A stretch of DNA of 32,000 nt from Candidatus Lokiarchaeum ossiferum. GTDB lineage: Archaea > Asgardarchaeota > Lokiarchaeia > Sigyniarchaeales > Promethearchaeaceae. The first letter of the stretch is position 1, and every line of letters begins with the position of its first letter. The translations under genes and the position numbers were made by a program. Positions 4,431 through 31,342 of the stretch are shown here, piece after piece. The notes below the pieces were generated by a model. It ran no database searches, was not told the origin of the DNA, and worked only from the letters and a program-made list of their open reading frames with translations. The stretch is taken from the NCBI GenBank assembly GCA_025839675.1, contig CP104013.1, forward strand, positions 2,550,001 to 2,582,000, read 5' to 3'.

Positions 4431-4539
4431 GCAATCTTTCGTAGTATGTATCTTTTTTTTTGTAGAACTGATCATAACAATTATATAACTCAAGTCCCAA
4501 TTTTGTATTGATATGAACTCTACAAAATCGTCACAAAAG
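4431..4539 (+). repeat. copy B of the ~108-nt direct repeat; functional promoter/5' end of the large beta-helix gene
   Basis: Contains the TATA-like TTATATAA (4481-4488), centred ~28 nt upstream of the ATG at 4513. That spacing suggests a leaderless or very short-leader mRNA. The repeat also covers the first ~9 codons (MNSTKSSQK). Confidence 0.8.
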
Positions 4540-14184: not shown

Positions 14185-15183
14185 TTAACTTAGTGGTTGA
14201 CCGATTTTTTCTTTATGAATGAAAAGAAATGCGATGGTTCTAAAAGCTTCATCAACAATATCTTTGTTTAAAGCGCTGGTCTCATAATAGGCAATACCTA
14301 ACTTTTCAGCTAAGGCTTTGCCTGCTTCTTGAGTAACTTGCCGATTTTCAAGAAGATCAATTTTATTCGCCACAAGCATCAATAAAATATCAGGTTCAGC
14401 ACGCTTCGCTTCATTATACCAATCTTCTATACTTGCAAAGGTTTCAGGACGAGTTACGTCATAAATAATAAAACCTGCTTTAGCCCCAGCAAAATAAGTT
14501 TGACGTACTCGTTTAAATTGTTGTTGGCCCGCTAAATCATACAATGTTAGCCGCACTTCCACCTCCCATTCGGGAAAATTAATGGCTTTCTTCATTATAG
14601 AAACGCCAATGGTGCTTTTGTAATCATTTTCAAAAGTGGAATCGACAAATTGGTGAACTAAAGTTGTTTTCCCAACCCCACCGTCGCCTCCTAAGATCGT
14701 TTTCATTACAAAAGATCCTTTTTCAATAACAATTTGTTGAAGACTTTTCCCCCCCTCAAGGGAATGAATTTGATTTTTAAAATCAGGGATCACGGGTGAC
14801 ACAGGGCGTCCATCAAAAATTCGGATCACCTTTTCTGCACACAGATAGGCGTATGGAAAAAGAGAATCGAGACTTGCCATCATATCTGCCACTAAAACTA
14901 AGATTGCATCGGGTCCTGCTTCACAAAAGATCATACGATTTTTATCGGTATCAAAACTACCGGTTCCAAAATTTCCCGATTGGAATTCTGCTGCGATCCG
15001 CTTTAAAACAGGTTCTACAAGGGCAGCAATCCCTCCCAGAAGATCTTCATCCATCCCTTCTTTAAGGTGACTTGCCATTACCAACCCATCTCGGTTCACT
15101 ATTACCATAGCATGAAGATCTTCCCCGATGGTTTGAAACATCCACTTTAGCAAGGCATCCAATTTTGCTCTATCGATGGCCAT
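14185..15183 (-). CDS. Roadblock/LC7 (MglB-like) domain fused to a Rab/Ras-like small GTPase
   Basis: 332 aa. Residues ~1-120 look Roadblock-like (LHAMVIVNRDGLVMASHL...LLGGIAALVEPVL...MIFCEAGPDAILVLVAD). Residues ~158-325 form a complete small GTPase: G1 GGDGGVGKTT, G3 DLAGQQQF, G4 NKID, G5 ETSAL. Confidence 0.88.
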   Translation of the reverse strand: MAIDRAKLDALLKWMFQTIGEDLHAMVIVNRDGLVMASHLKEGMDEDLLGGIAALVEPVLKRIAAEFQSGNFGTGSFDTDKNRMIFCEAGPDAILVLVADMMASLDSLFPYAYLCAEKVIRIFDGRPVSPVIPDFKNQIHSLEGGKSLQQIVIEKGSFVMKTILGGDGGVGKTTLVHQFVDSTFENDYKSTIGVSIMKKAINFPEWEVEVRLTLYDLAGQQQFKRVRQTYFAGAKAGFIIYDVTRPETFASIEDWYNEAKRAEPDILLMLVANKIDLLENRQVTQEAGKALAEKLGIAYYETSALNKDIVDEAFRTIAFLFIHKEKIGQPLS

Positions 15184-15426: not shown

Positions 15427-16533
15427 ATGACCCAATTCAATGACCGTCTAGCAAAATTAGTTGTCAATTATTCTTTAGGTGTAAAAGTTGGAGATCGTGT
15501 AGCAATTCAAAGCCCAGCTATAGCAGAGGATTTATGTTCTGCATTGTATAAAGAAATTATCATCGCTGGTGGATATGTTACTCTTCAAATTGGTCTTCCA
15601 GGAATTCAGGAAATCCTTTTTGAATATGGAAATGATAACCAATTGAAACATATCTCCGAACTTACTAAATTTGTTTATGAAAAATTTGAGCACATAATCA
15701 CAATTGATGCCACCTATAACTCCAGATCTCTTGAACTTATAGACCCGAAGAAGAAGCAATTGCGGAATTCAACCCCCGAAAATGCTGCACTAATGCAAAC
15801 ATTCATGAAACGTTTAGAATCCAAAGAACTCCATTGGATAGGGATCCCTTATCCATGTTTTTCAAAAGCTCAAGATGCTGGGATGGGCATCCATGCATAC
15901 AAGAAATTCATTTCCAAAGCTCTAAATATTGATAAAGAAGATCCTATTGCATATTGGAGGCAAGTTCAAAAAGACCAAAATAGATTAATTCAAATTCTAG
16001 ATGAGACAAATAAAATTAAAGTATTTGGTGAAGATACAGAACTATCTTTATCTGTTAAAGGTAGAAAGTGGATCAATTGCAGTGGACAAAATAATTTACC
16101 TGATGGAGAGGTATTTACTGGTCCAATTGAAGATTCAATTAATGGACATATTCGGTTTACCTATCCGGGGATCTTCCAAGGTCAAGAAATTGAAAATATT
16201 TATCTCGAATTCAAGGATGGAAAGGTGATCAAAGCGACAGCCGAAAAAGGTCAAAAATTACTTGATTCTATCTTAGAAATTGATGGAGCAAATGGAATTG
16301 GAGAATTTGCCATTGGAACCAACTATAATATCACAAAATTCACCAAAAATATGCTCTTTGATGAGAAAATTGGGGGTACAATGCACATGGCATTGGGTAT
16401 GGGTATCCCAGAATCTGGTAGTCTTTCAAAATCAGCAATTCATTGGGATATATTGAAAGATATGAATTCAGAAGACTCACGCATTGAGGCAGATGGAAAA
16501 ATAATTTATCAAGCAGGACAATGGAAAATTTAA
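15427..16533 (+). CDS. aminopeptidase, peptidase family M29 (AmpS/PepS-like)
   Basis: 368 aa. NLPDGEVFTGPIEDSINGHIRF, GEFAIGTN, FDEKIGGTMHMALG and AIHWDIL match the conserved M29 metal-binding/catalytic blocks. Confidence 0.85.
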   Translation: MTQFNDRLAKLVVNYSLGVKVGDRVAIQSPAIAEDLCSALYKEIIIAGGYVTLQIGLPGIQEILFEYGNDNQLKHISELTKFVYEKFEHIITIDATYNSRSLELIDPKKKQLRNSTPENAALMQTFMKRLESKELHWIGIPYPCFSKAQDAGMGIHAYKKFISKALNIDKEDPIAYWRQVQKDQNRLIQILDETNKIKVFGEDTELSLSVKGRKWINCSGQNNLPDGEVFTGPIEDSINGHIRFTYPGIFQGQEIENIYLEFKDGKVIKATAEKGQKLLDSILEIDGANGIGEFAIGTNYNITKFTKNMLFDEKIGGTMHMALGMGIPESGSLSKSAIHWDILKDMNSEDSRIEADGKIIYQAGQWKI

Positions 16534-16587: not shown

Positions 16588-17727
16588 TTAAAAATTAAAG
16601 TCGGATCTTTTTAAATCTTTACCACATTCTTCACAATAGGCATCTTTATTGGAAAGAATGCGAGCAATTAATGTTTTCGCTAAGTAATCTCCACATTCTG
16701 GACAACGAAGATTTAGAGCAGAAGAGTGAATACTTGATTTTTCAACTTCAAATTTTGATTCACTCTTTCCTCGCGATTGAATTGAAGGTGTTTTTTGATA
16801 TAAATCAGTATTCAAATCCAATTTCGCGCTTTGTTTTTCTATTGGAAAAGCAGAGGCAGCAACCACCGGCTTTTTATCAGCTTCGATATATGCTTTGGGA
16901 TCTTTTACTTCAATATTAATTATTTCCATATGATTATTCTCAGTTAAAACCACTAAAGCATCAATATCGGGAGAAAATAAAGGTCCAGCAGATAAACTCT
17001 GAATTGGAGCTCGGCAGCGATATGTTTCAAAGGTATTTCCTTTTTTATCCAAAATGTGAATTGTGTTGGAATTATCACCAACAGCTAATAGTGTCTGATC
17101 ATATAAAGAAAGAGTAGTAAAGCCTGTGATCACCGGAATATCCACAGGAATTTTTTGCACGGATGCTTCAATGTCCAACACATTTACCGAATTATTTTGA
17201 TCAACAAATACAATCACCTTTTTCTGAGTTGAATTAATTTTCCCAATATCAACAAATAGGATATCTGTAGGATGTTGGTACTTTGCCATAACTTGTCCTT
17301 GGTTATTTAGAACAAAAATTCGGTGATCTTCTAAGAGAACTACTATTTCCAATCCGGGATCATAATCTAAATTTCCAACGATTCCATTAACAATACCAGA
17401 AGGAAGGGTTTTCTTCCAGATTTCGCCTCCATCTTTAGAAAAGACCCGAATTTCTCCAGAATATGAGAAAGAAACAAACACATTGTCACCTTTATCATAG
17501 ATATCCTTTAAAAATAAGGCAGAAACATCAGAAGAGAAAGGAAATTTAGAAAGGGATTTACCTTCGGAATTAAAGATGGATAATTTTTCATCATAACTCA
17601 AAAGTAATATTTCTGGTGTTGAATTTTGGGTAAAATGACCAAGGGAACAGAAATAGAATGCAGATTGGCTAAAGATTGATCCTTTTTTAACAAAATTCAA
17701 CGATTTACTAAATTTTTTCCAGCTCAT
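16588..17727 (-). CDS. cytoplasmic ~6-bladed beta-propeller (FG-GAP/PQQ/BBS2-like repeats) with C-terminal zinc ribbon
   Basis: 379 aa with no signal peptide or TM. About six ~43-aa repeats each end in a hydrophobic strand plus turn, for example GHFTQNSTPEILLLSYDEKLSIFNSEGKSL, KDIYDKGDNVFVSFSYSGEIRVFSKDGGEIW, GNLDYDPGLEIVVLLEDHRIFVLNNQGQVM and GPLFSPDIDALVVLTENNHMEIINI. A ~60-aa polar linker follows, then CPECG-x18-CEECG. Confidence 0.6.
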   Translation of the reverse strand: MSWKKFSKSLNFVKKGSIFSQSAFYFCSLGHFTQNSTPEILLLSYDEKLSIFNSEGKSLSKFPFSSDVSALFLKDIYDKGDNVFVSFSYSGEIRVFSKDGGEIWKKTLPSGIVNGIVGNLDYDPGLEIVVLLEDHRIFVLNNQGQVMAKYQHPTDILFVDIGKINSTQKKVIVFVDQNNSVNVLDIEASVQKIPVDIPVITGFTTLSLYDQTLLAVGDNSNTIHILDKKGNTFETYRCRAPIQSLSAGPLFSPDIDALVVLTENNHMEIINIEVKDPKAYIEADKKPVVAASAFPIEKQSAKLDLNTDLYQKTPSIQSRGKSESKFEVEKSSIHSSALNLRCPECGDYLAKTLIARILSNKDAYCEECGKDLKRSDFNF

Positions 17728-17767
17728 TGTTATTTTCTCAAGTTCTTATTTAATTATCATGTAATGC

Positions 17768-17776
17768 AAAAAAAAA
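17768..17776 (-). terminator. T9 tract (minus strand) 6 nt after the Cache-HAMP gene stop; possible (leaky) terminator
   Basis: Read directly. A TATA-like TTAAATAA follows, ~20-28 nt upstream of the propeller ATG (17727). The propeller gene may therefore have its own promoter. Confidence 0.35.
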
Positions 17777-17782
17777 GGGAAA

Positions 17783-19213
17783 TTATTTATTTTTGCTATC
17801 TTCTTTAATTGCCGATAGCATACCCTTAAATGCGCGGGTTAAATCACCAATTTCATCATCTTGGGCTTCAAGAGTTTCATCAATCACAATATCTTCCCCT
17901 GATGTTAGCATCGAAGATACAGAATCTTGACTGGTCAATTTTTGAATAGATTCGGTTAGGATTTTTACAGGTTTTGTAATTTGTCCCGCTATCATAGTCC
18001 CTAAAAAGACAGAAACTCCCGCTGCGATCAAAATAATAATAATTAGTGTGATCTGCACAGCTCGAATTGCTTTCGAGACTTCACCTTGCAATACTGCTAC
18101 AGAAGCTAACGCATCATCTTCAGAAACCACATTAACTAGGATAAAATCGGTACCAGCAATAGCACTATATGCATAGTAAAAGTCTTCATCAGCAGTTTTT
18201 TCATAGGTCCCCACACCAGAACTATAAGTTGTCATTTCTGTAATTGTGGAAGTTGAAAAAGGTTCAACATCAGCAATATTAACAGTAACGTCATCCCCAT
18301 CTTCAGGATCATCAACATCTGGGTGAACAACAGCTAACCCAGTATTATCGATCAGAAATGCATAACCTTTCCCATCCAGAAAACTTATATCCAAAATATT
18401 TTCTTTAATCGTATCAATTGTTAAATCCACGGCAATTATTCCAATTAATGAATCATCAGTCTCATTGAAGACACCTTGGGCAATAGTGATCATCAGCCCT
18501 AATCCATTGGCATCCATATATGGAGAAGTAATCAGTAAGTCGGAAGATTCTTCAAGACTTGATGTATCATACCACGATCTTGTTCGCGGGTCATAATCTT
18601 CATCAAATTCTGACCATGGATAACATCGGAAAATTCCGAGATCAAAACCCATATAAATCCAGCCTAAATCGGGATTTGCGGTTTTAGTATATCTAAATAT
18701 GTGATCCAAATTAGCAGAAATATTCACCATTTTTTGAACTGTTTCGTTGGCATCAGAATATGTCGAAGTATATGTGTTCGGAGCCAAATGATACATCGAA
18801 TAATTGAAGCTGACAAAACCATCACCATAATTACTATCCAATTTGAATTCAATATCAGGGTTACCCTGATGATCATCAAGAATATCCGTAAAGGACGGAT
18901 ATGGCCCATAATCATCCGGATTGTTGAATAGATTTGTGGCAAAGTAAGCCATTGATTTAACATCATTTATGGATGATTTTATCTTTTCACCAATCGTGTG
19001 GGCATTTTCTTGTGCACTTAAAATCATATTGGCTTGAATTTGATCTGTTAAAGCCTCTTCACTTTCGTTCGTTGTAGTTAATTTCATCGTTCCAAAGAAG
19101 CCTAAAATAATGGCACTTACACCAATTAAAGCGATTATTGAAAATACAGTAAATGCGAGCAAAATTTTAGTTCGGATTCCGTACTTAATAGATTTTTTAG
19201 TAGTTGTTGTCAT
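17783..19213 (-). CDS. membrane sensor: TM - double-Cache-like extracytoplasmic domain - TM - HAMP, with no output domain
   Basis: 476 aa. TM1 is ILLAFTVFSIIALIGVSAIILGFFG. Cache hallmarks are GWIYMGFDLGIFRCYPW...YDPRTRSWY...MDANGLGLMITIAQGV...IGIIAVDLTI...GYAFLIDNTGLAVVHP. TM2 is ITLIIIILIAAGVSVFLGTMIAG. The HAMP-like segment is ITKPVKILTESIQKL...DDEIGDLTRAFKGMLSAI, and the protein ends 8 aa later. Confidence 0.8.
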   Translation of the reverse strand: MTTTTKKSIKYGIRTKILLAFTVFSIIALIGVSAIILGFFGTMKLTTTNESEEALTDQIQANMILSAQENAHTIGEKIKSSINDVKSMAYFATNLFNNPDDYGPYPSFTDILDDHQGNPDIEFKLDSNYGDGFVSFNYSMYHLAPNTYTSTYSDANETVQKMVNISANLDHIFRYTKTANPDLGWIYMGFDLGIFRCYPWSEFDEDYDPRTRSWYDTSSLEESSDLLITSPYMDANGLGLMITIAQGVFNETDDSLIGIIAVDLTIDTIKENILDISFLDGKGYAFLIDNTGLAVVHPDVDDPEDGDDVTVNIADVEPFSTSTITEMTTYSSGVGTYEKTADEDFYYAYSAIAGTDFILVNVVSEDDALASVAVLQGEVSKAIRAVQITLIIIILIAAGVSVFLGTMIAGQITKPVKILTESIQKLTSQDSVSSMLTSGEDIVIDETLEAQDDEIGDLTRAFKGMLSAIKEDSKNK

Positions 19214-19225
19214 AATGGTTCACCT

Positions 19226-21958
19226 TTAATTAGATTCTATGAAATCCTCCACGTTTATTTGAGCCATCAAATTAGAAACTTCTTGGAAAGCATTTTGAAT
19301 CGCTTTTTTCGCATTCTGAGAATCATGCACAGGGATATATCTTCCTTGAACACTTCTTTCGCAGATTTTTCGCAAATCGCCTTCAATAGGGATTAACTCA
19401 TTACCGATTCCAATAATAAGAAGGTTCATGGAGATTAAGTTTTCCTCAATATATTCTCCAAGACCAACCCGTTTATCAGAATTCATAAATTTCCAAAAAC
19501 CTTTATATTGTCGATCTTGTAAATTGAATTGGTTGCTTTGGTTATCCATTCCATCAGTTAGAGCGATAACCCATTTATGTTCATCAGAAATTCTTTGATT
19601 TATAAGGTTGAAAGAATCACCAATTGCATCAAACATTGCCGTCTGATAGCGTGTAGCACGTATTCGAGAGATAATTCCCCGAATATGTTCTTCATTTCCT
19701 CCTTTTAGGGTTGGTGGTAAAATCACTTCTGAAATAGAGTGGAATAAGACAATTGCAATTTCATCTTGAGGATTAATTTGGGTATCATAAATTTCTAATG
19801 CCCCACTAACAGCAGCATGGATTCGATTTCCAACCATTGATCCTGATACATCAATAACCATTACAACAAATTTCTTCTGGATCAAACTCACACGTAATTT
19901 CTCATATTCCACACGCATTCGATGGGCTTGAGGACGTTTTCGAGTATTTTGATACACAGTTTCCATTTCTTTATATATATTCATTTGTAATCGAATATCT
20001 TGCGCTTTTTTAGCGCCAGTCAATGCTTCTTCGAGAATACTGATTGCTTCAGGATCATTCTCAATAGTAGCAATTTTCCCAAGATAAAATTGGTTGTAGG
20101 CAGTACCAAGATCATCTTGATTATTGAAATCTATATCAAGGGCAGAGCGAATTAAGGCTTTTCCATCCTCCACTTGACCATGTTGTGCTTTAAACAAGCC
20201 AAAATTTCTAAAGATTAAAGCGAGATCGGCTTTTAAATTATTGCTATTGCATACATTTACCGCTTTTTCAAAATAATCACGAGCGAGGTTTACATTTTCT
20301 GAATCAGCATATAATTGAGCGAGGTTATTATATCTTTTAGGTAGGACAGTGTTATCTTTCATCTCAAGAGCGATACTGATTGCAAGTTTGTAAGAAGTTT
20401 CCGCGTCAGCAACATTACTCCGAATCCGATAGATATTTCCAAGATTATTCGCGCAAACAGCCATACCTTTCTGATTGCCAGAAATTTTGAAAATTTCTAA
20501 TGCTTTATTATAGTTTTTAGCAGCTAAATCTAAGTTTCCTCGATAATAATCCGAATTTCCTAAACGAAGCATGGTGATTAAATTTTGGAAGGATGAGGTT
20601 AAAACTGCAATTTCATCATTCGCACTTTTTGATTCCATCGGGATTTCCCGAGAAATCGAGCCTTGCGATATAAAATTCATCATTTTTGTCAAATTGGTGA
20701 TTGGATTCACGATGCGTTTACTTACATAACTGCTGGTAAATCCAATGAGCACAACTGAACCGATAAGGACAACCAAGAGAATTACTAATTGTTGTCGTGT
20801 CAAAGCAAGGATTTTACCACGAATTGTCGAGGCAGGAGCCACAATCTCTTCAAGAGGAACAACAACAGCAAACTTATACTCAGTAGAAGGAATTGTTTGG
20901 TAAGTAATATACCAGCTATCCCCATCTTTTGTAAAAGTACCATTACCCATAGAATGTTGATTCATCTGAGTTAAAATCGAAGAAAAACCGGATCCTTCTA
21001 AGGAGGAATCATCAATAGGTTTATTAATTTCAGCTTCTGCTGAGGCAATAGTACTTAAATCCAAACCAGGATGTGAAACAGTAGCTCCTGAATCACTGAT
21101 TAAAAATGCATAACCAGAATCCAAGATTTCAGTTTGTAAAATAGAATCTTGCAATGATTGGATAGTTAAATCTACTGCGATTACACCAATTAATGTCCCA
21201 TTCGCATAATGTACGGGTTTAGCTATAGAAATCATTAATCCCAAACCATTCGCATCAATGTAAGGTTCAGTAACAATAGTCTTGTCTTCCAATTTTGCTT
21301 GTTTATACCACCCACGTTGTCTTGGATCATAACCTGTATTATCAGTATCCCATTCAGTGAATGGGAAACATCGGAACAACCCTTGTTCTTCAAAACCCAT
21401 GTAAATCCACCCATATTCGGGTGAAGTTGTTTTTAATTGTTTAAAGAAAACATCAAAATGCGCTGATAAATCGATTGTATTGTTCATAGATGCACTTTGA
21501 ATTGTGGGATCATTACCAACAATACTCGTCGGAGGAAAATAAATAAATGATGCATCAAAGGATAAAGTGATTCCACCATATTCTGATGGACTCTCATAAT
21601 CGAGACTAGTGGGAATTTCAGTATGATAGTAGGACGGAATTTTATTCACGGCAATTTTTCCATTGAAAATATCTTCGGCATATTGAGCGAAAGATTCAAC
21701 ATCACTAACTTTTTTTGTGAATTGATCGTCGATATACGTCCCCAACGTATTGGTAACTTCATCCATAGAACGATACTGTTCATTTTCCAACGCCCCACCG
21801 CTTATATTTGCAACATCATTCCCCAACCCATTCATATTACCAAGTGATACTGACACTATGACAATTATAGGAACAATTAGAAACAGAATAAACGCGAGCG
21901 TAATTTTATTTTTAATTCCGAGCAGACGTTGTTGCTTGGAACTATGATTTTCTGCCAT
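19226..21958 (-). CDS. membrane receptor: TM - double-Cache-like domain - TM - HAMP - TPR repeats - von Willebrand factor A (MIDAS) domain
   Basis: 910 aa. TM1 is ITLAFILFLIVPIIVIVSVSL. Cache hallmarks are GWIYMGFEEQGLFRCFPF...YDPRQRGWY...IDANGLGLMISIAKPV...IGVIAVDLTI...GYAFLISDSGATVSHP. TM2 is LVILLVVLIGSVVLIGF. The HAMP-like segment is VNPITNLTKMMNFISQGS...NDEIAVLTSSFQNLITML. It is followed by ~5-6 TPR-like units of ~40 aa (e.g. GMAVCANNLGNIYRIRSNVADAETSYKLAISIA). The C-terminal ~216 aa (nt ~19229-19876) form a vWA domain with MIDAS residues VIDVSGSM ... T ... LTDGMDN. Confidence 0.82.
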   Translation of the reverse strand: MAENHSSKQQRLLGIKNKITLAFILFLIVPIIVIVSVSLGNMNGLGNDVANISGGALENEQYRSMDEVTNTLGTYIDDQFTKKVSDVESFAQYAEDIFNGKIAVNKIPSYYHTEIPTSLDYESPSEYGGITLSFDASFIYFPPTSIVGNDPTIQSASMNNTIDLSAHFDVFFKQLKTTSPEYGWIYMGFEEQGLFRCFPFTEWDTDNTGYDPRQRGWYKQAKLEDKTIVTEPYIDANGLGLMISIAKPVHYANGTLIGVIAVDLTIQSLQDSILQTEILDSGYAFLISDSGATVSHPGLDLSTIASAEAEINKPIDDSSLEGSGFSSILTQMNQHSMGNGTFTKDGDSWYITYQTIPSTEYKFAVVVPLEEIVAPASTIRGKILALTRQQLVILLVVLIGSVVLIGFTSSYVSKRIVNPITNLTKMMNFISQGSISREIPMESKSANDEIAVLTSSFQNLITMLRLGNSDYYRGNLDLAAKNYNKALEIFKISGNQKGMAVCANNLGNIYRIRSNVADAETSYKLAISIALEMKDNTVLPKRYNNLAQLYADSENVNLARDYFEKAVNVCNSNNLKADLALIFRNFGLFKAQHGQVEDGKALIRSALDIDFNNQDDLGTAYNQFYLGKIATIENDPEAISILEEALTGAKKAQDIRLQMNIYKEMETVYQNTRKRPQAHRMRVEYEKLRVSLIQKKFVVMVIDVSGSMVGNRIHAAVSGALEIYDTQINPQDEIAIVLFHSISEVILPPTLKGGNEEHIRGIISRIRATRYQTAMFDAIGDSFNLINQRISDEHKWVIALTDGMDNQSNQFNLQDRQYKGFWKFMNSDKRVGLGEYIEENLISMNLLIIGIGNELIPIEGDLRKICERSVQGRYIPVHDSQNAKKAIQNAFQEVSNLMAQINVEDFIESN

Positions 21959-22079
21959 GGTTAATGAATGTAATAGATTTTTTCAAAAATAAATCTATTT
22001 CATACGGTTTCAATCTTCCCAAGTACTTCATATTTTCCATATGGTAGAGTTTTAAACCTTATGCAAATTCTAAAATAAT

Positions 22080-22904
22080 GTGGGAAAACCAAAACGAAAA
22101 CTAAAACGAGGATATCCTCTTGCATTACTTATTGGGTTTGAACCCATGCGCACTATCTATTGGAATATTTTTAGCGAACGCGCAGAACTTCGTAAGATAC
22201 AGAAGTTACCCCGCAAAAATGATAATATGGACAAAGCTCAACTATATCAATTTCATGAGAATCTTGTGGATGAATTACGACCCATTCTCAAAGATGGGAT
22301 GAAAAGTGTTATTTTGGTTACAGCTCCGAAAAAAAAATATTCTACCCTTTTTCTGGACCATGTGTCCCGTCATCACCAATGGATGATGAGTGATAAACAT
22401 CCCAATTCTGCATCCTTTAAATTACTCACGGGTAAAATTTCAGATCTCGAAGAAACGACTAATTTGATTCAATCTTCTGAATTTAAAGCAGCCTTGGGAA
22501 AAGTCACAGAAGAAGAAGCGGACCGAATCCTAGAAATTTTGGAAAAACGACTCAACGATGAAGATGACGGTTTTGTGCTTCATACATTGAAAGAGATCGA
22601 AGATCTTCTCTATGCAGGTGGGAAACGAAAAAAAAATTTTAAAAATTTACCTCTATTACCAGAATACGTAGTACTGACTAATGAATACTTGGAAAACCAT
22701 CCAAATAAGAACCGGTTACAACGGTTGTTACAGATAGCAAAAAATCGCAAAATTAAAACAAAAGTTGTCGATTTTGAGACATCTGCCGGTATTCGCATAG
22801 CTCAACTTGGAGGCATTGTATGTTTCTTGGAGATTACTTCAAAATATGAGAAACAGAAAGGTGAAGAATTTTTCGAAAAACAACACCAAAAAAAAAGGAA
22901 ATAA
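22080..22904 (+). CDS. Pelota/eRF1-like protein comprising only the central and C-terminal domains (no N-terminal domain)
   Basis: 274 aa, aligned by eye to the Pelota/Dom34 layout. LALLIGFEPMRTIYWNI resembles the first strand of the central domain. KSVILVTAPKKKYSTLFLDHV resembles the 'IVAGPGFxKxxF' block. EEEADRILEILEKRLNDEDDGFVLHTLKEIEDLL resembles the helical linker, and EYVVLTNEYL the 'ETLLVSDxLL' block. NRKIKTKVVDFETSAGIRIAQLGGIVCFL resembles the C-terminal 'G..V.IVS..HE.G..L..LGGIAAILR' block. It has no GGQ and a basic N-terminus (MGKPKRKLKRG). GTG start; a TATA-like TTTTAAA ~25 nt upstream suggests a leaderless transcript. Confidence 0.5.
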   Translation: MGKPKRKLKRGYPLALLIGFEPMRTIYWNIFSERAELRKIQKLPRKNDNMDKAQLYQFHENLVDELRPILKDGMKSVILVTAPKKKYSTLFLDHVSRHHQWMMSDKHPNSASFKLLTGKISDLEETTNLIQSSEFKAALGKVTEEEADRILEILEKRLNDEDDGFVLHTLKEIEDLLYAGGKRKKNFKNLPLLPEYVVLTNEYLENHPNKNRLQRLLQIAKNRKIKTKVVDFETSAGIRIAQLGGIVCFLEITSKYEKQKGEEFFEKQHQKKRK

Positions 22905-22911
22905 AATGGCA

Positions 22912-23406
22912 CTAGGATTTCTCAAAAGAATTACGAACATTTCTTTCCCAGTCAGCAAAGTTGGAATCTAATTGGGAAATTAAATCAAATGTATCAGATT
23001 TCTTGATAAAAACCGCGTTTTCAGCATCATATTCAACAGGAAAAGTTATCTCTTTTGCCGTATAAAATAAAATAGCTTTTAATACCCCATACACGTTCTC
23101 TTTTACGAATATTATCCTTTTATTCAGCTTCTCTTTCAAGGGCCTCTCATCAATCAGATCCCACAGAGGTACATAGGAATCGACCGGTTTCTGTGTAAGA
23201 CGATAAAAAATTCGTTTCATTTCATCCAAAACACTCATTTTCGAACTCCAAAAAAAGTGCATTTCAATAGAACTGATTCTAAATTTGATTAGATCCTCCT
23301 TATTTCTTTTCCTAAACAGCATTCCTTGATAAGCATCCGAAACAATATACCTATCAACAATTTTCCAAATTGTATTCACAAAATCATGATTAAATGCCTT
23401 TTCCAT
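22912..23406 (-). CDS. hypothetical protein
   Basis: 164-aa ORF with an ATG start. It is convergent with the Pelota-like gene across a 7-nt gap and downstream of the DJ-1 gene on the same strand. No motif I can recognise. Confidence 0.5.
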   Translation of the reverse strand: MEKAFNHDFVNTIWKIVDRYIVSDAYQGMLFRKRNKEDLIKFRISSIEMHFFWSSKMSVLDEMKRIFYRLTQKPVDSYVPLWDLIDERPLKEKLNKRIIFVKENVYGVLKAILFYTAKEITFPVEYDAENAVFIKKSDTFDLISQLDSNFADWERNVRNSFEKS

Positions 23407-23474: not shown

Positions 23475-24047
23475 TCATATAGAAATGTTGAGTTCATCTA
23501 TCCATTGTTTCTTTTCATCCTCTGAAACAATAATCTTAAGATAACTCCAAATTTTCAAGGCAAAATCATTGTAAGCATATCCTTTGGCAGTAATGATGGT
23601 TCCATCTTGAACACATCTTTGTTCTTGATAATTTTCCCATGGAAATGGATCTGTTTGTTCTAATTCAATGTATCGTTCATGTGTCCGAGTAGTAGTATAT
23701 TTATGCCTATCTAATAAACCGCAGGCGGCAAGATATTGGGGACCAGCACAAATCGCAGCGAGCAAACACTTTTGCTGATAACAAAACATGATGAGATGTT
23801 TCAAGTCATCTCGTAAATCTAAAATGCTTCCTCCTGGAATGATTATTCCAGCAATATTCTGAGACAATTCAATTTCAGAAACTAGTTTATGGGGTAAAAA
23901 TTGAAACCCAGAAGAAGAAACGATGGGATCTAAAGTGTAAGCAATGGTAGTAAATTTATATCCATTATCAGCATTTAATTCCATAGAAACAGGAGTTATT
24001 TCAAATTCTGCAAATCCTTCATATAAAAAAACTAAAACGGTCTTCAT
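23475..24047 (-). CDS. DJ-1/PfpI family protein (class I glutamine amidotransferase-like fold)
   Basis: MKTVLVFLYEGFAEFEI is the typical first strand, IIIPGG is present, and the nucleophile-elbow motif is LLAAICAGPQYLAACGLL. The track ORF starts at TTG 24071. I prefer the in-frame ATG at 24047, which gives the canonical N-terminus. Confidence 0.8.
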   Translation of the reverse strand: MKTVLVFLYEGFAEFEITPVSMELNADNGYKFTTIAYTLDPIVSSSGFQFLPHKLVSEIELSQNIAGIIIPGGSILDLRDDLKHLIMFCYQQKCLLAAICAGPQYLAACGLLDRHKYTTTRTHERYIELEQTDPFPWENYQEQRCVQDGTIITAKGYAYNDFALKIWSYLKIIVSEDEKKQWIDELNISI

Positions 24048-24089
24048 ATTTGAAATGAAGAGGGAATCCAAGATAAATTTTCCAATCAG

Positions 24090-24135: not shown

Positions 24136-26364
24136 TCACGCCAAGGTATAATATCCAATATTGAGAGAATAGGCTGTTGTTTTTGCGTTTCGAGAGACCA
24201 TACGGACTGCAATGTAGTAAGTTCCAGCGGAAGGAATATTAACCGAACAACTTTCTGGATTAGTACCTGCATTGCCAATTGCAATAGAATCGGTATAATC
24301 GGCGGAATTACAAATATATACATCAAGATTATAATTATTACTCCAAGATAGAATTGCTTCCATCATTCCAGGTTGAGCAGTGATAGCAAAGTAATCCACT
24401 TCGAATTTTGCAATACTACCGGTCAAAGTTTCTTCAACATAAACGACATCACCAGATACTTCGTTATCAACAGTAACAGAAATGCTATCTTCACCATAAT
24501 TTCCTGCGGCATCGTAAGCCCGAACGCTGATAATATGATTTCCATTGACTACTGTTGTTGAATCCCAAACCCATGTATAAGGAGCAGACGAATCGGAAAT
24601 CCAACTTCCACCATCAATTGAATATTGAACATAACTCACACCAATATTATCTGAGGCACTTGCTTCAATGGAAATAAAATCACTAACAATTGCAGCATCT
24701 GCAGGAGACGTAATACTCACTTCAGGATCTACCGTATCAGAAGGTGTACTGCCTTGTTCAATTGAGAATGAATAATCAACTAAACCAACATCAGCACTCG
24801 CTATCATTAAAACATATCCATCATCGACAAATCCACCTAAAGCGAATGGATTAATTGTAGTTTCGGTAGAATCATCTAAAATCAAGGTTTCTACAGCAGT
24901 ATAAGTGGGAACCCCACCAACAAGTTCTACCGAAATTAAGGATACTAAGAAATCAGTTTCAGTAGTTCTCCTTCCTCCTGCAGGAGCACCATCGTCTCCG
25001 TTAAATGAAAACATAGGATTATATTCAGAAGAAATTTGATTAAACCGGACATAATCGGATCCATAGGATCCCAATTCATATACGCCTGTTGCATCTCCTA
25101 AATAACTGAGAGTTTCTCCAAAGCTTGAGCCTAAAACATTCGTTACGAACATATCATCTATATCATAAATTCGTGTCTGGGTTGGTTCCAATTCATCTAA
25201 ATCGAAAGTTGTATAGTCATATTTTCCTCCACCAATTTCTGTTGTATGGATTAAATTGGCAATTCGCCAGTCATGATAAACATCTTCGAAAGTTTCTGTG
25301 TAACCAAAGTAACTTAAGGCTTGATTAATTCCAGTCACACCAGCAACTCCTGCTTGGACAAAATGACTTATAAGTTCAGCCCCACCATAGTGATCCGATA
25401 AATAGACGGTCCACATTAACGCTGAACCATAATCTGCTAAAATATTGATTCCACCTTGATCTTCCCAAACTGTTAAAGAATTGTCAGGAGTCGCAAGATA
25501 AGCTTCGATATCACCCCATGCCACACCATACCCACATAATGGTTCAGCATACATTGAGCATCCTTCATTCATGAAGGTATCATCATTGGAATTGTAATCA
25601 TCATGAATCAGATGTTGATATTCATGCGCTACAACACCTTCATATAAGTTTGGGCGTAAAACATCATCCCCGATTCGATTTTCCCAATCCATACAATCAA
25701 TTGAGATAATATTACGATCAAAGGCTTGTTCAAAAACACCCCAATAAAAACCAACGATATAATAAGGATAACTTGCATCATAATACATATCATCACGAAT
25801 ATTGGAAACTAACATAACTGATCTTCCTGATTCTTCATAATATGCATCACCTTGTTGAGCTGAACTTCCATCATGGAAATCTGGGCTACCAAAATATGTT
25901 GTATCTATTGGATAAATGTTATTATCAAATTCATCAATCATGTAAGCGACTTGTTCATCGGTAATTACCGGTACTTCACGATCATCAGGGAAACTTAAAT
26001 CTAAAGCAACCCAAATTTCAATATTGTTTCCAACCCCTCGAAGTTCGAAGGGGAGAGTTATGGTTCCATCATTCATATCATAACCATACCAATCCACAAT
26101 ATCACCGTCAGCGTAATAGCTTAAAGCTTCCACACTAGAAACAGTAGTATCTTCAGAAGAAGAAATCTGTCGATCTGGAGTAGAAACAGCAGGTAAATTC
26201 TCCATTGTCCTTCCACGTATTTCAGGACCTAAATCAATAGGTTCATAAGCAGCATAATTATATTGTTTTTTTTGGTTTTGCTGCATTGCTGCACCTAATG
26301 TAAGGATATTTGAACATACGATGACAAAAACTAATGAGAAAATCATAGATTTATTGTATTTCAT
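24136..26364 (-). CDS. secreted zinc metalloprotease (gluzincin, HEXXH...E) with C-terminal Ig-like and pre-peptidase C-terminal (PPC)-like domains
   Basis: 742 aa with a signal peptide (MIFSLVFVIVCSNILTLGAAM). The catalytic motif is VVAHEYQHLIHDDYNSNDDTFMNEGCSMYAE: HExxH plus a downstream NEG glutamate. An Ig-like segment follows (DPEVSITSPADAAIVSDFISIEASASDNIGVSYVQYSIDGGSW...ISVRAYDAAGNYGEDSISVTV). The final ~95 aa are PPC-like (DYFAITAQPG...LDVYICN...AGTYYIAVRMVS...AYSLNIGY). The MEROPS family is unresolved (M30/M6-like at best). Confidence 0.8.
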   Translation of the reverse strand: MKYNKSMIFSLVFVIVCSNILTLGAAMQQNQKKQYNYAAYEPIDLGPEIRGRTMENLPAVSTPDRQISSSEDTTVSSVEALSYYADGDIVDWYGYDMNDGTITLPFELRGVGNNIEIWVALDLSFPDDREVPVITDEQVAYMIDEFDNNIYPIDTTYFGSPDFHDGSSAQQGDAYYEESGRSVMLVSNIRDDMYYDASYPYYIVGFYWGVFEQAFDRNIISIDCMDWENRIGDDVLRPNLYEGVVAHEYQHLIHDDYNSNDDTFMNEGCSMYAEPLCGYGVAWGDIEAYLATPDNSLTVWEDQGGINILADYGSALMWTVYLSDHYGGAELISHFVQAGVAGVTGINQALSYFGYTETFEDVYHDWRIANLIHTTEIGGGKYDYTTFDLDELEPTQTRIYDIDDMFVTNVLGSSFGETLSYLGDATGVYELGSYGSDYVRFNQISSEYNPMFSFNGDDGAPAGGRRTTETDFLVSLISVELVGGVPTYTAVETLILDDSTETTINPFALGGFVDDGYVLMIASADVGLVDYSFSIEQGSTPSDTVDPEVSITSPADAAIVSDFISIEASASDNIGVSYVQYSIDGGSWISDSSAPYTWVWDSTTVVNGNHIISVRAYDAAGNYGEDSISVTVDNEVSGDVVYVEETLTGSIAKFEVDYFAITAQPGMMEAILSWSNNYNLDVYICNSADYTDSIAIGNAGTNPESCSVNIPSAGTYYIAVRMVSRNAKTTAYSLNIGYYTLA

Positions 26365-26888: not shown

Positions 26889-27998
26889 TTAGTTGATTTT
26901 TCTTTTGACGAGCAGAAAAACAGATACTGCAACACAATATAGAATCATTATTGGTATGTTAAATCCGGGAATTCCAGTACTGACTTCCGCATTATAGCTC
27001 AAATTCAAAGTAGGGACTTCTACAAGAGGGAAGTTATCATCGTTTCTTGACCCAGAGATGTGATACTTTATATCCCACATTCCATTTTCTGAATTGGCGG
27101 ATGGATACCGGGTAGAATAATCCCCCCAAAAATTTCCGTGAGTGCCATTATCCCAATCGTTTATTCCCGACCCATCATCATATCCTTGATTACCTACATT
27201 TTTACTAAATATGTTGTAATAGATTTTGTTAAAACTTGAAGTTTCTTTTACTTGAATTCCATGTCCGTTGTACATAACTTTATTCTGAGTTATAGTGGTG
27301 TTTTTGGTATCATAGACCTCCAAACCATTGCTCGTACTGTTAATTATATAGTTATTGGAAAATTTATGCTCTAATCCTTCAAATAATACCGTTCCTTTAA
27401 AGTTAAATTCGATATGGTTTCCTTGGAATGTATCCCCGACAGAAAAATGAGAATATAAGCCCATTTGTTCACTTCCACAGATATAATTTCCTGAATATAT
27501 CCCATTTTTGCTAACATAAGGATAAAGCCCAATTCGAGAATTATTAATAAAATCGCAATTTAAGACTTGATTAAACTCACCATAAGCAGAATAGATTCCT
27601 TTATAATTCTCAATAAAAGTGCAATTACGAATGATCACATTGTCACACCGCATTAAAGTAATTCCCGCATCTTGTGCTAAATAACCGGAGTTTGTAATCG
27701 TGCAATTTTCGATTAAAACATATTTTTCAGAATTTTCTATTCTGATTCCAGAACCAGATTCATCAGCATCGATAATCAGATTCTGTAGTTTATACGGATT
27801 GGATTTAGCCCCGCTACCAGTGACATAGGGACAATCTTTCCAAGACATATCATCTTGAGTGGGATCGATAAAAATGGTATCATGAAGGCCTACAATGGGG
27901 TCTGCAGATACATCAACCATACCAAAATTAATGGTAGAGCCGATTATTATGCTTAAAAATAGGCTTGAAAGAAAAATTATTTTCTGATTTGTTTTCAT
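26889..27998 (-). CDS. secreted single-module parallel beta-helix (PbH1/NosD-like) protein with a PGF-like C-terminal anchor; paralog of the 4513-8322 product
   Basis: 369 aa with a signal peptide (IIFLSSLFLSIIIGSTINFG). The N-cap SNPYKLQNLIIDADESGSGIRIENS matches ESPYILENLIINAEMKENGLRIENT of the large protein. Beta-helix coils are present (NCTITNS, NCTFIEN, NCDFINN). The C-cap GNFWGDYSTRYPSAN...DNFPLVEVP matches GNYWGNYEIRYPSAT...DRFPLIVDP. The C-terminus is GIPGFNIPIMILYCVAVSVFLLVKRKIN. Confidence 0.82.
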   Translation of the reverse strand: MKTNQKIIFLSSLFLSIIIGSTINFGMVDVSADPIVGLHDTIFIDPTQDDMSWKDCPYVTGSGAKSNPYKLQNLIIDADESGSGIRIENSEKYVLIENCTITNSGYLAQDAGITLMRCDNVIIRNCTFIENYKGIYSAYGEFNQVLNCDFINNSRIGLYPYVSKNGIYSGNYICGSEQMGLYSHFSVGDTFQGNHIEFNFKGTVLFEGLEHKFSNNYIINSTSNGLEVYDTKNTTITQNKVMYNGHGIQVKETSSFNKIYYNIFSKNVGNQGYDDGSGINDWDNGTHGNFWGDYSTRYPSANSENGMWDIKYHISGSRNDDNFPLVEVPTLNLSYNAEVSTGIPGFNIPIMILYCVAVSVFLLVKRKIN

Positions 27999-28575: not shown

Positions 28576-28681
28576 GGGCCATTGACGCAGCCAGGTAGCG
28601 TGTCGGGCTTTTAATTGATGAGCATTTCGCTCAAAAAAAGCCACCCGCAAGCCGGGGGTTCGAATCCCTCATGGCCCGCCA
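28576..28681 (+). tRNA. tRNA-Lys (anticodon UUU) with a 29-nt intron at the canonical 37/38 position; CCA encoded
   Basis: Folded by hand. The acceptor stem GGGCCAT/ATGGCCC has 7 perfect pairs, with U8. The D-arm is ACGC-AGCCAGGTA-GCGT and includes G18 G19. The anticodon stem TCGGG (28603-28607) pairs with CCCGC (28644-28648), leaving one U27:C43 mismatch. The loop is C-T-TTT-A, with the anticodon at 28610-28612. The intron is 28614-28642 (ATTGATGAGCATTTCGCTCAAAAAAAGCC). The variable loop is AAGCC, the T-arm is GGGGG-TTCGAAT-CCCTC, the discriminator is G, and CCA follows. A TATA-like ATATAT lies at 28555-28560 upstream, and a T-rich tract lies downstream. Confidence 0.85.
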
Positions 28682-30178: not shown

Positions 30179-31342
30179 TTATAGTTTAGGCATTTTATTT
30201 TGAGTTTTTGTTTTTTTTCTGAGGAAGAGAATTATGGAAAGAAGGGAGATCCCTAAAAAGATGAAACCAAACGATATTGTTCCATTTTCATCACTTTCAG
30301 AACTAAAATCAGTAGAAAGAGGTTCCCATTTAGAGTCTGTAGAATCATAGGACCATAAATCCCCATAGTTCACACTATAGTCTTCTCCAAGCCCTCCAAA
30401 TAGGTAAGTTTTATTGGTTGACGAAGCAAAAGCCATGGCATGTCCGGTTCGGGGGGATGGAGTGCTATCGGGAGAGAATTCAGTCCAAGTTGAAGAGGAA
30501 GATCCATTGAAACACCATGTATCCCCCAAAGCTCGAATAGGGGATTCTTCATTATCACCTCCAAACAGGAGGCTTTGACCCAAATGAGAATCAAATACCA
30601 TAGAAAACCAATATCGGCTTAAAGGAGTTGTATTAGGAGACTTTTTTTGCCAAGTACCTTCTGTAAGATTCAAACTCCATGTTTCACTAGACAGACCAGA
30701 GACACGCCCTCCAAAAAGTATTCCTAATTTAGCATTGGTATCGTATACCATAGCATGGCCATAACGAGCTTGGGGTGGAGTATTTGTGGTTAATTGCACC
30801 CAATTTTCAGTCTGTGGATTAAAAATCCATGTTGCATCCTTAAGAACAAAATTGGGATCAACGTGACCTCCATAAATAACAATTTTTTGTTCGTTTTCAT
30901 CATAATGCATAGAGAAATCAGCCAAATTTGGTGGAGAATTTTCGGGTGATAATTTTGTCCAAGCGTTAGAAGAAGGATCAAAAGCCCATGTTTCACCTCC
31001 ACCAAAATAAATGACCCGATTTGTGGATGGATCGTAGACCATTCCAGAATTTTCTTGAATTCTTGGAACGATTGGAGTATTTATAGGAGTCCAAGTATTA
31101 TTGGATAGATGATAAAGCCACGTAGAATAATCTGGAGAACTACTTGCCATAGTTCGACTTCCGAAAAGAATTAGTTGATTTTGAATAGGATCGAAGACCA
31201 TGGAATGGGCATACAGAAGAGAAGGTCCATCATTAGAAGATGAGGAATAACCAAGCGAAGGAAAACTTATCAAACCGAAAATGAAAATAAAAAAAGCAAA
31301 TTTAAGTTTGAAGTCGCGGTGAACTTTTAATTTTGACGACAT
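30179..31342 (-). CDS. secreted Kelch-repeat beta-propeller protein with C-terminal TM anchor
   Basis: 387 aa with a signal peptide (FAFFIFIFGLISFPSLGYS). Six Kelch-type repeats each carry a W-x-x-L/I...P-x-x-R-x-G-H-x-M-V-Y-D...L-x-L-F-G-G pattern (e.g. PPQARYGHAMVYDTNAKLGILFGGR, PSPRTGHAMAFASSTNKTYLFGGLG). The C-terminal TM is FGFIFLGISLLSIILFL, followed by a basic tail RKKTKTQNK. Confidence 0.85.
   Translation of the reverse strand: MSSKLKVHRDFKLKFAFFIFIFGLISFPSLGYSSSSNDGPSLLYAHSMVFDPIQNQLILFGSRTMASSSPDYSTWLYHLSNNTWTPINTPIVPRIQENSGMVYDPSTNRVIYFGGGETWAFDPSSNAWTKLSPENSPPNLADFSMHYDENEQKIVIYGGHVDPNFVLKDATWIFNPQTENWVQLTTNTPPQARYGHAMVYDTNAKLGILFGGRVSGLSSETWSLNLTEGTWQKKSPNTTPLSRYWFSMVFDSHLGQSLLFGGDNEESPIRALGDTWCFNGSSSSTWTEFSPDSTPSPRTGHAMAFASSTNKTYLFGGLGEDYSVNYGDLWSYDSTDSKWEPLSTDFSSESDENGTISFGFIFLGISLLSIILFLRKKTKTQNKMPKL

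Follow-up and report, generated by a model that had tools for sequence, protein, structure and literature searches.

We describe three consecutive minus-strand genes, here called A, B and C, within a 32,000-nucleotide stretch of contig CP104013.1 from Candidatus Lokiarchaeum ossiferum (the window, to which all positions without a locus prefix refer). Our preferred reading, to which we attach a rough probability of 0.45, is that the trio forms a transmembrane signalling module peculiar to the Asgard archaea, one that acts by binding proteins and not by catalysis, with a receptor made of A and B sensing amino acids and C acting as its client. An earlier description made from the sequence alone (the first-pass annotation) had placed three genes here in a host it called Asgard-like; its coordinates agreed exactly with the open reading frames (ORFs), and the host is an Asgard archaeon, as protein C was 100% identical to NEF87_002143 of Candidatus Lokiarchaeum ossiferum. 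The gap between A and B is 12 bp and that between B and C is 55 bp, and at other loci A and B overlap or abut. The three genes, with TM1 and TM2 denoting transmembrane helices, are as follows.

19226-21958, minus strand: gene A, 910 amino acids, with TM1, dCache_1, TM2, HAMP, TPR and vWA (ORF and Pfam).
17783-19213, minus strand: gene B, a 476-amino-acid paralog of A with TM1, dCache_1, TM2 and HAMP (ORF and Pfam).
16588-17727, minus strand: gene C (NEF87_002143), a soluble protein of 379 amino acids with a propeller, a linker and a zinc ribbon (ORF).

Both A and B carried a double-Cache sensor. Against the dCache_1 family (PF02743, Pfam cutoff 45 bits), A scored 67.7 bits (E = 1.5e-18) and B scored 45.0 bits, at the cutoff, with B orthologs ranging from 44 to 87 bits. 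Two hydrophobic helices bracket the Cache domain in each of these proteins, which places the Cache domain outside the cell and everything after TM2 in the cytoplasm; no such helix was observed in C. The basic N-terminus of A suggests an N-in topology. The features of the two sensor halves are listed here.

21848-21904, minus strand: TM1 of A, residues 19-37, with a score of 3.13 in a 19-residue Kyte-Doolittle window.
20804-21826, minus strand: extracytoplasmic double-Cache sensor of A, approximately residues 45-385, from the dCache_1 profile.
21170-21331, minus strand: amino-acid motif of A, with Y210, R215, W217, Y218, Y233 and D263 aligned to Y121, R126, W128, Y129, Y144 and D173 of PctA.
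20732-20788, minus strand: TM2 of A, residues 391-409, with a Kyte-Doolittle score of 2.80.
20564-20725, minus strand: HAMP linker of A, residues 412-465, leading directly into the TPR through the junction R465-x-G467-N468.
Within gene B, minus strand: TM1 (residues 17-35), TM2 (residues 390-408) and HAMP (residues 408-470), the protein ending a few residues later.
18425-18595, minus strand: amino-acid motif of B, residues 207-263, aligned as YRWYYD.

The HAMP linker (PF00672, Pfam cutoff 25 bits) was sub-threshold in both window proteins, at 19.4 bits in A and 24.7 bits in B. Six of ten diverse B orthologs reached the cutoff (27.5-33.6 bits) at the same position, and HAMP was the terminal domain in all of the orthologs. 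The canonical pattern P...G[DS][LI]...DEI..L..[AS]F is also readable in the sequence, and NCBIfam alignments of A reach the HAMP regions of histidine kinases. Across residues 1-465, A and B are 30% identical (E = 1e-59). These observations uphold the first-pass description of a paralogous Cache-HAMP pair in which the shorter protein, B, halts just after HAMP.

The best sequence matches of A in the Protein Data Bank (PDB) were PctC, PctA, PctB and Mlp24/37-type amino-acid chemoreceptor sensors, followed by CACHD1 and alpha2delta-1. The published amino-acid motif reads, in PctA numbering, Y121-x4-R126-x-W128-Y129 followed by Y144 and D173, with 13-17 residues to Y144 and approximately 27-34 to D173 (PMC8915833). 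We observed the full motif (YRWYYD) in both A and B at the prescribed spacing, W to Y being 16 in A and Y to D being 30 in both proteins, and by this motif A and B look like amino-acid sensors of the dCache_1AA class. A match of B to the Pfam family VWA_N is explained by the finding that VWA_N is really the N-terminal portion of the Cache domain (PMC8915833).

Beyond HAMP, protein A continues into a cytoplasmic arm of two domains, both recovered above their Pfam cutoffs: TPR_12 at 64.4 bits (E = 1e-17, cutoff 30.1) and VWA_2 at 47.2 bits (E = 3.8e-12, cutoff 27). The D-x-S-x-S, T and D elements of the metal-ion-dependent adhesion site (MIDAS) were all present, in agreement with the TPR scaffold and cytoplasmic vWA domain with a complete MIDAS that had been proposed from the first reading. 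Confidence in the AlphaFold models is given below as the predicted local distance difference test (pLDDT).

19883-20563, minus strand: TPR superhelix of A, residues 466-692, 12 helices, pLDDT approximately 90.
Within this TPR, minus strand: Asn ladder N468, N482, N505, N508 and N545, including an NLGN motif.
19259-19873, minus strand: cytoplasmic vWA domain of A, residues 696-900.
Within this vWA domain, minus strand: MIDAS residues D703, S705 and S707 (19838-19852), T773, and T801-D802-G803 (19541-19558).

Among 76 A orthologs drawn from all lineages, the MIDAS residues (D703, S705, S707, T773 and D802), the Asn ladder and the HAMP-TPR junction R465-x-G467-N468 were each at least 95% conserved, and the signatures DxSGSM and TDGxDN were both found in 74 of 77 A orthologs. 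Ladders of this kind in LGN/Pins and kinesin light chain face a groove in which an extended peptide is bound, and the metal coordination of a MIDAS is completed by an acidic residue from the ligand protein. The cytoplasmic arm of A is predicted from these motifs and from its model to consist of docking surfaces, with metal-dependent binding. HAMP helix AS2 passes without a linker into the first TPR helix, an arrangement that suggests direct conformational coupling of the two.

No enzymatic output was observed in either membrane protein. Pfam and NCBIfam searches of A and B found no kinase, methyl-accepting chemotaxis protein (MCP), GGDEF/EAL, cyclase, phosphatase or DNA-binding domain, and the NCBIfam kinase, phosphodiesterase and phosphatase models aligned only to the Cache/TM/HAMP or TPR segments, far under their cutoffs. 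The AlphaFold model of A residues 461-910 (pLDDT 87) contained 12 TPR-type helices and a vWA Rossmann fold only. With Foldseek, the best matches of the TPR region were the peptide-binding TPRs of LGN/Pins and kinesin light chain (E approximately 3e-8) and those of the vWA region were ITIH1/4, BatB (3ibs) and CMG2; the PDB fold matches of this segment were TPR and vWA proteins only, with no catalytic fold among them. The model and its fold matches exclude any conventional output concealed within the TPR, in agreement with the first-pass annotation. Two conventional identities for A and B were considered and rejected: chemotaxis MCPs, in that MCPsignal (PF00015) was absent and MCP homologs matched the Cache/HAMP part only, and two-component histidine kinases, in that HisKA and HATPase_c were absent.

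Comparison with known proteins places the parts of A in familiar classes and their combination outside them. The dCache_1AA chemoreceptors (PctA/PctB/PctC, Mlp24/37, Tlp3) share with A and B the two-helix topology, the extracytoplasmic double-Cache domain, the full amino-acid motif and HAMP, and share with A a non-enzymatic cytoplasmic part that acts by binding partner proteins, as is predicted for A. They differ in having a methyl-accepting hairpin that works with CheA/CheW, where A has instead TPR and vWA (MIDAS) domains, an output-less paralog and a propeller partner. In alpha2delta and CACHD1, the amino-acid motif and a vWA/MIDAS domain likewise occur in one polypeptide (A against CACHD1, E = 1.2e-14), but there the vWA domain is an insertion in the Cache domain and lies with it outside the cell (PMC8915833), whereas the vWA domain of A is C-terminal and cytoplasmic, after TM2, HAMP and TPR. 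The fold search with A 461-910 showed no specific similarity of its vWA domain to that of alpha2delta.

The TPRs of LGN/Pins and kinesin light chain resemble that of A in fold, in Leu-Gly-Asn-type repeats and in the conserved Asn ladder lining the groove. This is a likeness of fold and motif only, with no GoLoco or kinesin context, and the TPR of A is fused to a receptor and a vWA domain. Bacteroides BatA and BatB resemble A in having a membrane-anchored vWA domain and, in BatB, a TPR, the BatB vWA domain (3ibs) being among the fold matches; unlike A, the Bat proteins are without Cache/HAMP sensors and occur in operons with a MoxR ATPase. No MoxR-type AAA+ ATPase recurred near the trio and none was present in the window neighbourhood; membership of the trio in a vWA-MoxR(-VMAP)/Bat operon was rejected for want of this linked ATPase.

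The third protein, C, is a soluble propeller. Its AlphaFold model (pLDDT 79 overall) contained 24 strands forming six four-stranded blades, followed by a disordered linker and a zinc ribbon.

16903-17700, minus strand: six-bladed beta-propeller of C, residues 10-275, of the FG-GAP/ITFG2/BBS2 class, pLDDT approximately 90.
17338-17376, minus strand: single FG-GAP-like loop, residues 118-130.
16795-16827, minus strand: linker motif AKLDLNTDLYQ, residues 301-311, with a low-confidence strand at 302-305 in the model.
16621-16704, minus strand: zinc ribbon, CPECG (342-346) and CEECG (365-369), pLDDT approximately 80, with weak Pfam Zn_ribbon matches.

The top six Foldseek matches of C in the PDB were all human ITFG2 of the KICSTOR complex (E = 8e-12 to 5e-11), followed by BBS1, BBS9, BBS2 and BBS7, with generic WD40 proteins appearing only thereafter; the ITFG2 and BBS matches together spanned E = 8e-12 to 1e-9 at a TM-score of approximately 0.5. 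By sequence, C of the window reached no Pfam cutoff, including those of Itfg2, BBS2_Mid and Beta-prop_BBS7, and had no significant propeller match among solved structures, only weak matches to WDR5 and zinc fingers. Its orthologs and relatives were more informative. A Hermod-type ortholog matched BBS2_Mid at 29.3 bits (cutoff 27), Thor orthologs showed a GDxDGDxxxE FG-GAP-type loop, and a profile search with the propeller returned 3,130 representatives at E <=1e-3, of which those sampled matched FG-GAP, FG-GAP_3, Itfg2, BBS2_Mid and BBS7 at 1e-19 to 1e-40. On the strength of the model and these matches C appears to belong to a wider FG-GAP/BBS2-like class. The earlier label of a soluble six-bladed FG-GAP/BBS2-like propeller with a zinc ribbon is right at class level, which is as close as the matches place C to the ITFG2 and BBS2 families.

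ITFG2 and the BBS proteins act in membrane-associated complexes, KICSTOR in amino-acid signalling to mTORC1 and the BBSome in membrane receptor trafficking. The propellers of ITFG2 and of BBSome subunits BBS1, BBS2, BBS7 and BBS9 are like C in being its top fold matches and in the matches of C orthologs and relatives to BBS2_Mid, BBS7 and Itfg2, but C is below the Pfam cutoffs with a six-bladed model, and the likeness is not specific enough for orthology. None of the partner subunits known from eukaryotes (KPTN, SZT2 and KICS2, or BBS4/8/18 and ARL6) came to light, no search having been aimed at them in Candidatus Lokiarchaeum ossiferum.

The pairing of a MIDAS vWA domain with a propeller of this class had been likened to the head of integrins, and the likeness proved partial. 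What stood is the domain-class echo, in that an FG-GAP-class propeller is encoded beside a MIDAS vWA domain as in the integrin alpha/beta head, and the two are conserved neighbours, as might be expected if the vWA domain of A and the propeller of C were homologs or forerunners of the beta-I domain and alpha-propeller. What did not stand is any closer kinship. The integrin head is extracellular and formed by two type-I subunits, with a propeller of seven blades bearing Ca2+ loops in several of them, whereas both domains of the trio are cytoplasmic, C is soluble and its propeller is modelled with six blades and a single FG-GAP-like loop. The vWA domain was nearest to ITIH, BatB and CMG2, no integrin beta chain occurred among the top 50 fold matches of A 461-910, the best propeller fold matches were ITFG2 and BBS proteins and not integrin alpha, and no leg, hybrid or EGF domains were present in the trio. 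We consider integrin ancestry very unlikely. A precedent for recruitment through an intracellular MIDAS is Rea1/midasin, whose MIDAS binds the ubiquitin-like (UBL) domains of the WD40 proteins Ytm1 and Rsa4 through an acidic residue of the propeller-containing client. Rea1 resembles the proposed contact between A and C in its cytoplasmic MIDAS-dependent recruitment and differs from it in features that the trio does not have, namely an AAA+ motor, UBL domains and a role in ribosome biogenesis.

The three genes travel together across the Asgard archaea. Approximately 20 full-length homologs of A were found, all in Asgard metagenome-assembled genomes and down to 29% identity, and a scan of one genome per Genome Taxonomy Database (GTDB) species gave 71 loci, every named one of which was Asgard (Promethearchaeum, Heimdallarchaeota, Hodarchaeum, Sigynarchaeum, Hermodarchaeota and approximately 48 Thorarchaeota). 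In all, 81 loci were scanned with hidden Markov models of the sensor, TPR, vWA and propeller. The trio was linked in approximately 75 loci across Loki-, Thor-, Heimdall/Hod-, Hermod- and Sigynarchaeia and was not found outside the Asgard archaea. C itself had 16 homologs by sequence, all Asgard, and those examined adjoin A and B. Three gene orders were observed, with flanking genes unrelated between the three groups.

A>B>C: Loki, Sigyn and Hermod, 18 loci.
A>B<C: Heimdall and Hod, 4 loci.
C>A>B: Thor, 48 loci.

No locus with enough sequence was without C, and the apparent cases end on the side where C is expected; in one apparent exception (L005), the cut end encodes the C-terminal part of a Thor-type C (E = 3.6e-82). 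B was next to A wherever the flank was present, the sole exception being a divergent variant of 1043 amino acids at L006. This A relative (L006:6145-9276) kept YRWYYD intact with only faint TPR and vWA signals. An actin-family gene in divergent orientation (L006:4520-5518) lies approximately 600 bp away from it, on a contig that ends before the positions of B and C. At another locus (L008:3629-9185, on an 89-kb contig) A and B were split into several ORFs and C was intact, which is probably a frameshift error in a long-read assembly, pseudogenisation being the alternative. Linkage maintained through three gene orders with unrelated flanks excludes chance adjacency, and the non-chance association suspected in the first-pass annotation was found in all sampled Asgard classes. 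That the genes are functionally unrelated neighbours could draw on a possible separate promoter for C and on nothing else; set against approximately 75 loci in six named Asgard groups that keep the trio despite rearrangement and unrelated flanks, the idea has a vanishingly small probability.

In trees, the A and B clades had the same branching order. Mean identity was 0.43 among A proteins, 0.41 among B proteins and 0.30 across the two, and this matching order with similar constraint indicates that the duplication is ancient and that both copies have been maintained. A search for further members of the system gave little. Small ORFs upstream of A in three loci (L001, L002 and L009) were rejected as a fourth component, not being conserved between lineages, and a second linked cluster was rejected as an antisense artefact overlapping C. 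Only SpeA recurred as a linked family (in Thor and Heimdall), and no other family was linked in more than two lineage groups.

How the genes are transcribed in the window bears on the relation of C to the receptor pair. The two elements below, like T-rich tracts downstream of C, were read directly from the sequence.

21959-22079, minus strand: region upstream of A, with an A/T-rich TATA-like element ATTTATTTTT approximately 27-36 nucleotides before the ATG.
17728-17782, minus strand: B-C intergenic region, 55 bp, with a T9 run and then an A/T-rich box ATAATTAAATAA.

The upstream region probably holds the promoter for A and B, which are probably a single transcript. The B-C spacer is a possible terminator followed by a separate promoter, from which C may be transcribed, and a promoter of its own would fit the mobility and inversion of C relative to A and B in other lineages. 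This layout would also suit a different account, in which A and B are a true receptor pair whose TPR-vWA arm signals to partners encoded elsewhere (cytoskeletal, trafficking or GTPase) and C is an accessory such as an assembly factor, chaperone or parallel regulator. C may be expressed from its own promoter and varies in position and strand between lineages, TPR and vWA are separate docking surfaces that could serve more than one client, and no fusion of A with C was found among the sampled relatives. However, the linkage of C to A and B survives three rearrangements in all Asgard classes, no other family is linked in more than two lineage groups, and no C homologs were found away from A and B. 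We regard partners encoded elsewhere as unlikely, though as the strongest of the alternatives.

While the propeller of C was universal, its C-terminus differed by lineage, as follows.

Loki: linker and zinc ribbon.
Thor (L026, L040): short zinc ribbon and approximately 170 amino acids with two winged-helix-like repeats, weak signals.
Heimdall (L015, L018): eight-Cys cross-brace finger, with weak Siva/FYVE/RING-like matches.
Sigyn (L019, L073): helical, winged-helix-like tail without a zinc site.
Hermod (L020, L024, L025): insert of approximately 230 amino acids and a zinc ribbon.

The four zinc-ribbon Cys of C were invariant or nearly so in ortholog alignments. The Thor extension matched PCI in 5 of 13 members (best E = 1.6e-4) and also DprA_WH, TFIIE_alpha and TrmB, all weakly, and gave no PDB match. 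In Loki-type C, the linker motif, with the consensus A-K-L-[DE]-x-N-x-[DE]-L-[YF]-Q, is an island within an otherwise variable, disordered linker and is a candidate peptide for docking into the TPR groove or onto the MIDAS of A. A constant propeller with variable C-termini looks, by analogy, like a docking domain with a swappable effector.

This pattern also bears on whether the arm of A needs an effector at all. The vWA and TPR domains might form a clustering or Mg2+/Mn2+/Ca2+-sensing module that builds arrays of A and B or links them to these cations inside the cell, with A and B serving as a membrane scaffold or nutrient-responsive anchor that has no dedicated effector; both domains often mediate oligomerisation, and neither A nor B has an enzymatic or DNA-binding output. 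Such a scaffold would leave unexplained the strict linkage to C and the effector-like variation of its C-termini, and the invariance of the HAMP-TPR junction suggests that a conformational signal enters the arm. We judge it improbable.

In two lineages the module was linked to an enzyme of amine metabolism. In approximately 42 Thor loci (e.g. L040:9899-11800) the gene immediately downstream of B encodes a biosynthetic arginine decarboxylase of the SpeA type (NCBIfam PRK05354, E = 8e-97), and in four Heimdall/Hod loci (L015-L018) this gene is divergent from A. Neither the window nor the Loki, Sigyn and Hermod loci contained it. Precisely those lineages with linked SpeA had Glu, Asp or Gln, in A and B alike, in place of the carboxylate-binding pocket Arg that corresponds to R126 of PctA, with the other five positions kept (YEWYYD as opposed to YRWYYD). 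From this substitution it is plausible that the ligands of the Thor and Heimdall sensors are no longer amino acids but decarboxylated, cationic compounds, e.g. agmatine or polyamines. A match to the published amine motif (dCache_1AM) was not confirmed, and we do not place these sensors in that class. Together, the change of the pocket Arg and the SpeA linkage tie the module to amino-acid and amine physiology. This linkage had been overlooked in the first-pass annotation, as had the published amino-acid-binding motif in both sensors, the pan-Asgard distribution of the system and the interchangeable C-terminal modules of C.

The physiological connection also speaks to a possible role in biological conflict or defence, comparable to vWA-MoxR ternary or STAND-propeller systems. 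The 18 propeller relatives that we scanned had multi-propeller, STAND, TIR, HD-CE and CARDB architectures only, and included proteins of approximately 1,600 amino acids with multiple FG-GAP/BBS2-like propellers fused to STAND NTPases, as well as TIR or HD-CE fusions (P0067, P0077, P0106 and P0073 for these architectures together). These distant fusions favour a conflict role, and vWA and TPR domains are common in such systems. On the other side, no NTPase, nuclease, protease or TIR gene was linked to the trio, PADLOC returned one generic TPR match only, and a physiological role is suggested by the amino-acid sensor outside the cell and by the linkage to SpeA. Vertical inheritance is indicated by A and B trees of matching shape and by a single occurrence of the trio on each contig of complete chromosomes. 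A defence function is in our estimate highly improbable.

Returning to the signalling module that we prefer, A and B would form a receptor complex, probably a heterodimer around a four-helix bundle of TM2 and HAMP, which would give a single cytoplasmic arm. The Cache domains of A:B would bind extracellular amino acids, and HAMP would relay ligand binding into the rigidly joined LGN/Pins-type TPR groove and MIDAS vWA domain. The TPR/MIDAS arm would then hold or release C depending on ligand, control thus running from the sensor to the propeller, and the C-terminal module of C would give the downstream effect, probably by binding nucleic acid or protein. In this scheme A would resemble a chemoreceptor with its kinase-control tip swapped for TPR-vWA, and C would resemble an adaptor with a swappable output, like a response regulator. 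MIDAS/TPR-dependent recruitment of the propeller, which had been put forward from the domain content, is made more plausible by the conserved linkage.

Several observations weigh against this scheme. The HAMP scores of the two window proteins are sub-threshold, the split between A and B had a bootstrap of only 127/200, and the ligand assignment is drawn from the motif. The contacts between A and B and between A and C are ones that we infer. A Rosetta-stone scan of the 18 propeller relatives showed no fusion to vWA, TPR or Cache, no residue of C could be named as the MIDAS ligand, and the conserved linker motif is limited to Loki-type C. In addition, a separate promoter may serve C, whose gene is inverted in Heimdall, and co-transcription of the trio is therefore not universal.

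The surroundings of the trio in the window consist of archaeal housekeeping and Asgard-typical genes, including Cbf5, RNA polymerase subunit B, a Roadblock-Ras GTPase fusion and an M29 aminopeptidase. The Asgard-typical fusion of Roadblock/LC7 with a Ras-family small GTPase (14185-15183, minus strand; Ras E = 2e-45) lies 1.4 kb from C, and no GTPase family recurred beside the trio in other lineages when linked families were compared across loci. The M29 aminopeptidase gene (15427-16533, plus strand) is convergent with C, and a DJ-1/PfpI protein is encoded nearby (23475-24071, minus strand); an 80%-identical locus (L009) likewise has the two within a few kb of the trio, and their proximity looks like local synteny among close relatives only. 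Two ORFs adjoin A upstream, one of 274 amino acids divergent from A (22080-22904, plus strand) and one of 164 amino acids (22912-23406, minus strand); neither had a Pfam or PADLOC match or recurred at other loci. Large proteins likely to be surface-exposed or secreted are encoded around the locus at 4513-8322 (plus strand), 24136-26364, 26889-27998 and 30179-31342 (all minus strand), comprising two NosD/beta-helix proteins, a 742-amino-acid protein with Big_7 and PPC, and a Kelch-repeat propeller protein. A tRNA of 103 nucleotides at 28576-28678 (plus strand; 50.6 bits by Rfam), which ARAGORN did not report, is probably an intron-containing archaeal tRNA.

Prokaryotic signal transduction usually proceeds through histidine kinases, chemoreceptors, nucleotide cyclases, Ser/Thr kinases and phosphatases, or membrane-bound transcription factors. 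The module fits none of these schemes, in that dCache and HAMP would drive two docking domains and a dedicated soluble partner is encoded alongside, and the earlier assertion that its domain content lies outside the canonical schemes was confirmed by our finding a sensor and transmitter with docking domains only. What is new is the non-enzymatic TPR-vWA output of a Cache-HAMP receptor, which has no precedent, together with an obligate paralog that has no output and a propeller protein as dedicated partner. Public annotations of these proteins read hypothetical, TPR, Cache, zinc-ribbon or WD40, and the literature that we searched held no description of the system or of its locus tags. Candidatus Lokiarchaeum ossiferum is in culture and grows on amino-acid-rich media. 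With the host in culture, direct tests can be made of the ligand, of where C is located and of its interaction with A, and the natural Arg-to-Glu switch beside SpeA in Thor and Heimdall offers a ready comparison for ligand specificity.

A bolder extension is that the trio represents Asgard recruitment-based nutrient signalling evolutionarily continuous with eukaryotic machinery, a sensor of the alpha2delta/CACHD1 motif class outside the cell governing a cytoplasmic MIDAS/TPR platform to which an ITFG2/BBS-type propeller docks, and this propeller being ancestral to, or sharing ancestry with, those of KICSTOR or the BBSome. We hold this to be quite improbable, somewhat more so than a scaffold without an effector; if true, the pairing of a MIDAS with an FG-GAP-class propeller would predate integrins. 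The resemblance of the modelled C to eukaryotic ITFG2 and BBS propellers is class-level, suggestive and unproven. The propeller class of C is nonetheless one that eukaryotes use in membrane-associated nutrient-signalling and trafficking complexes, and the presence of the system in every major Asgard lineage sampled, and its not being found elsewhere, indicate that it was probably present early in the group that gave rise to eukaryotes.

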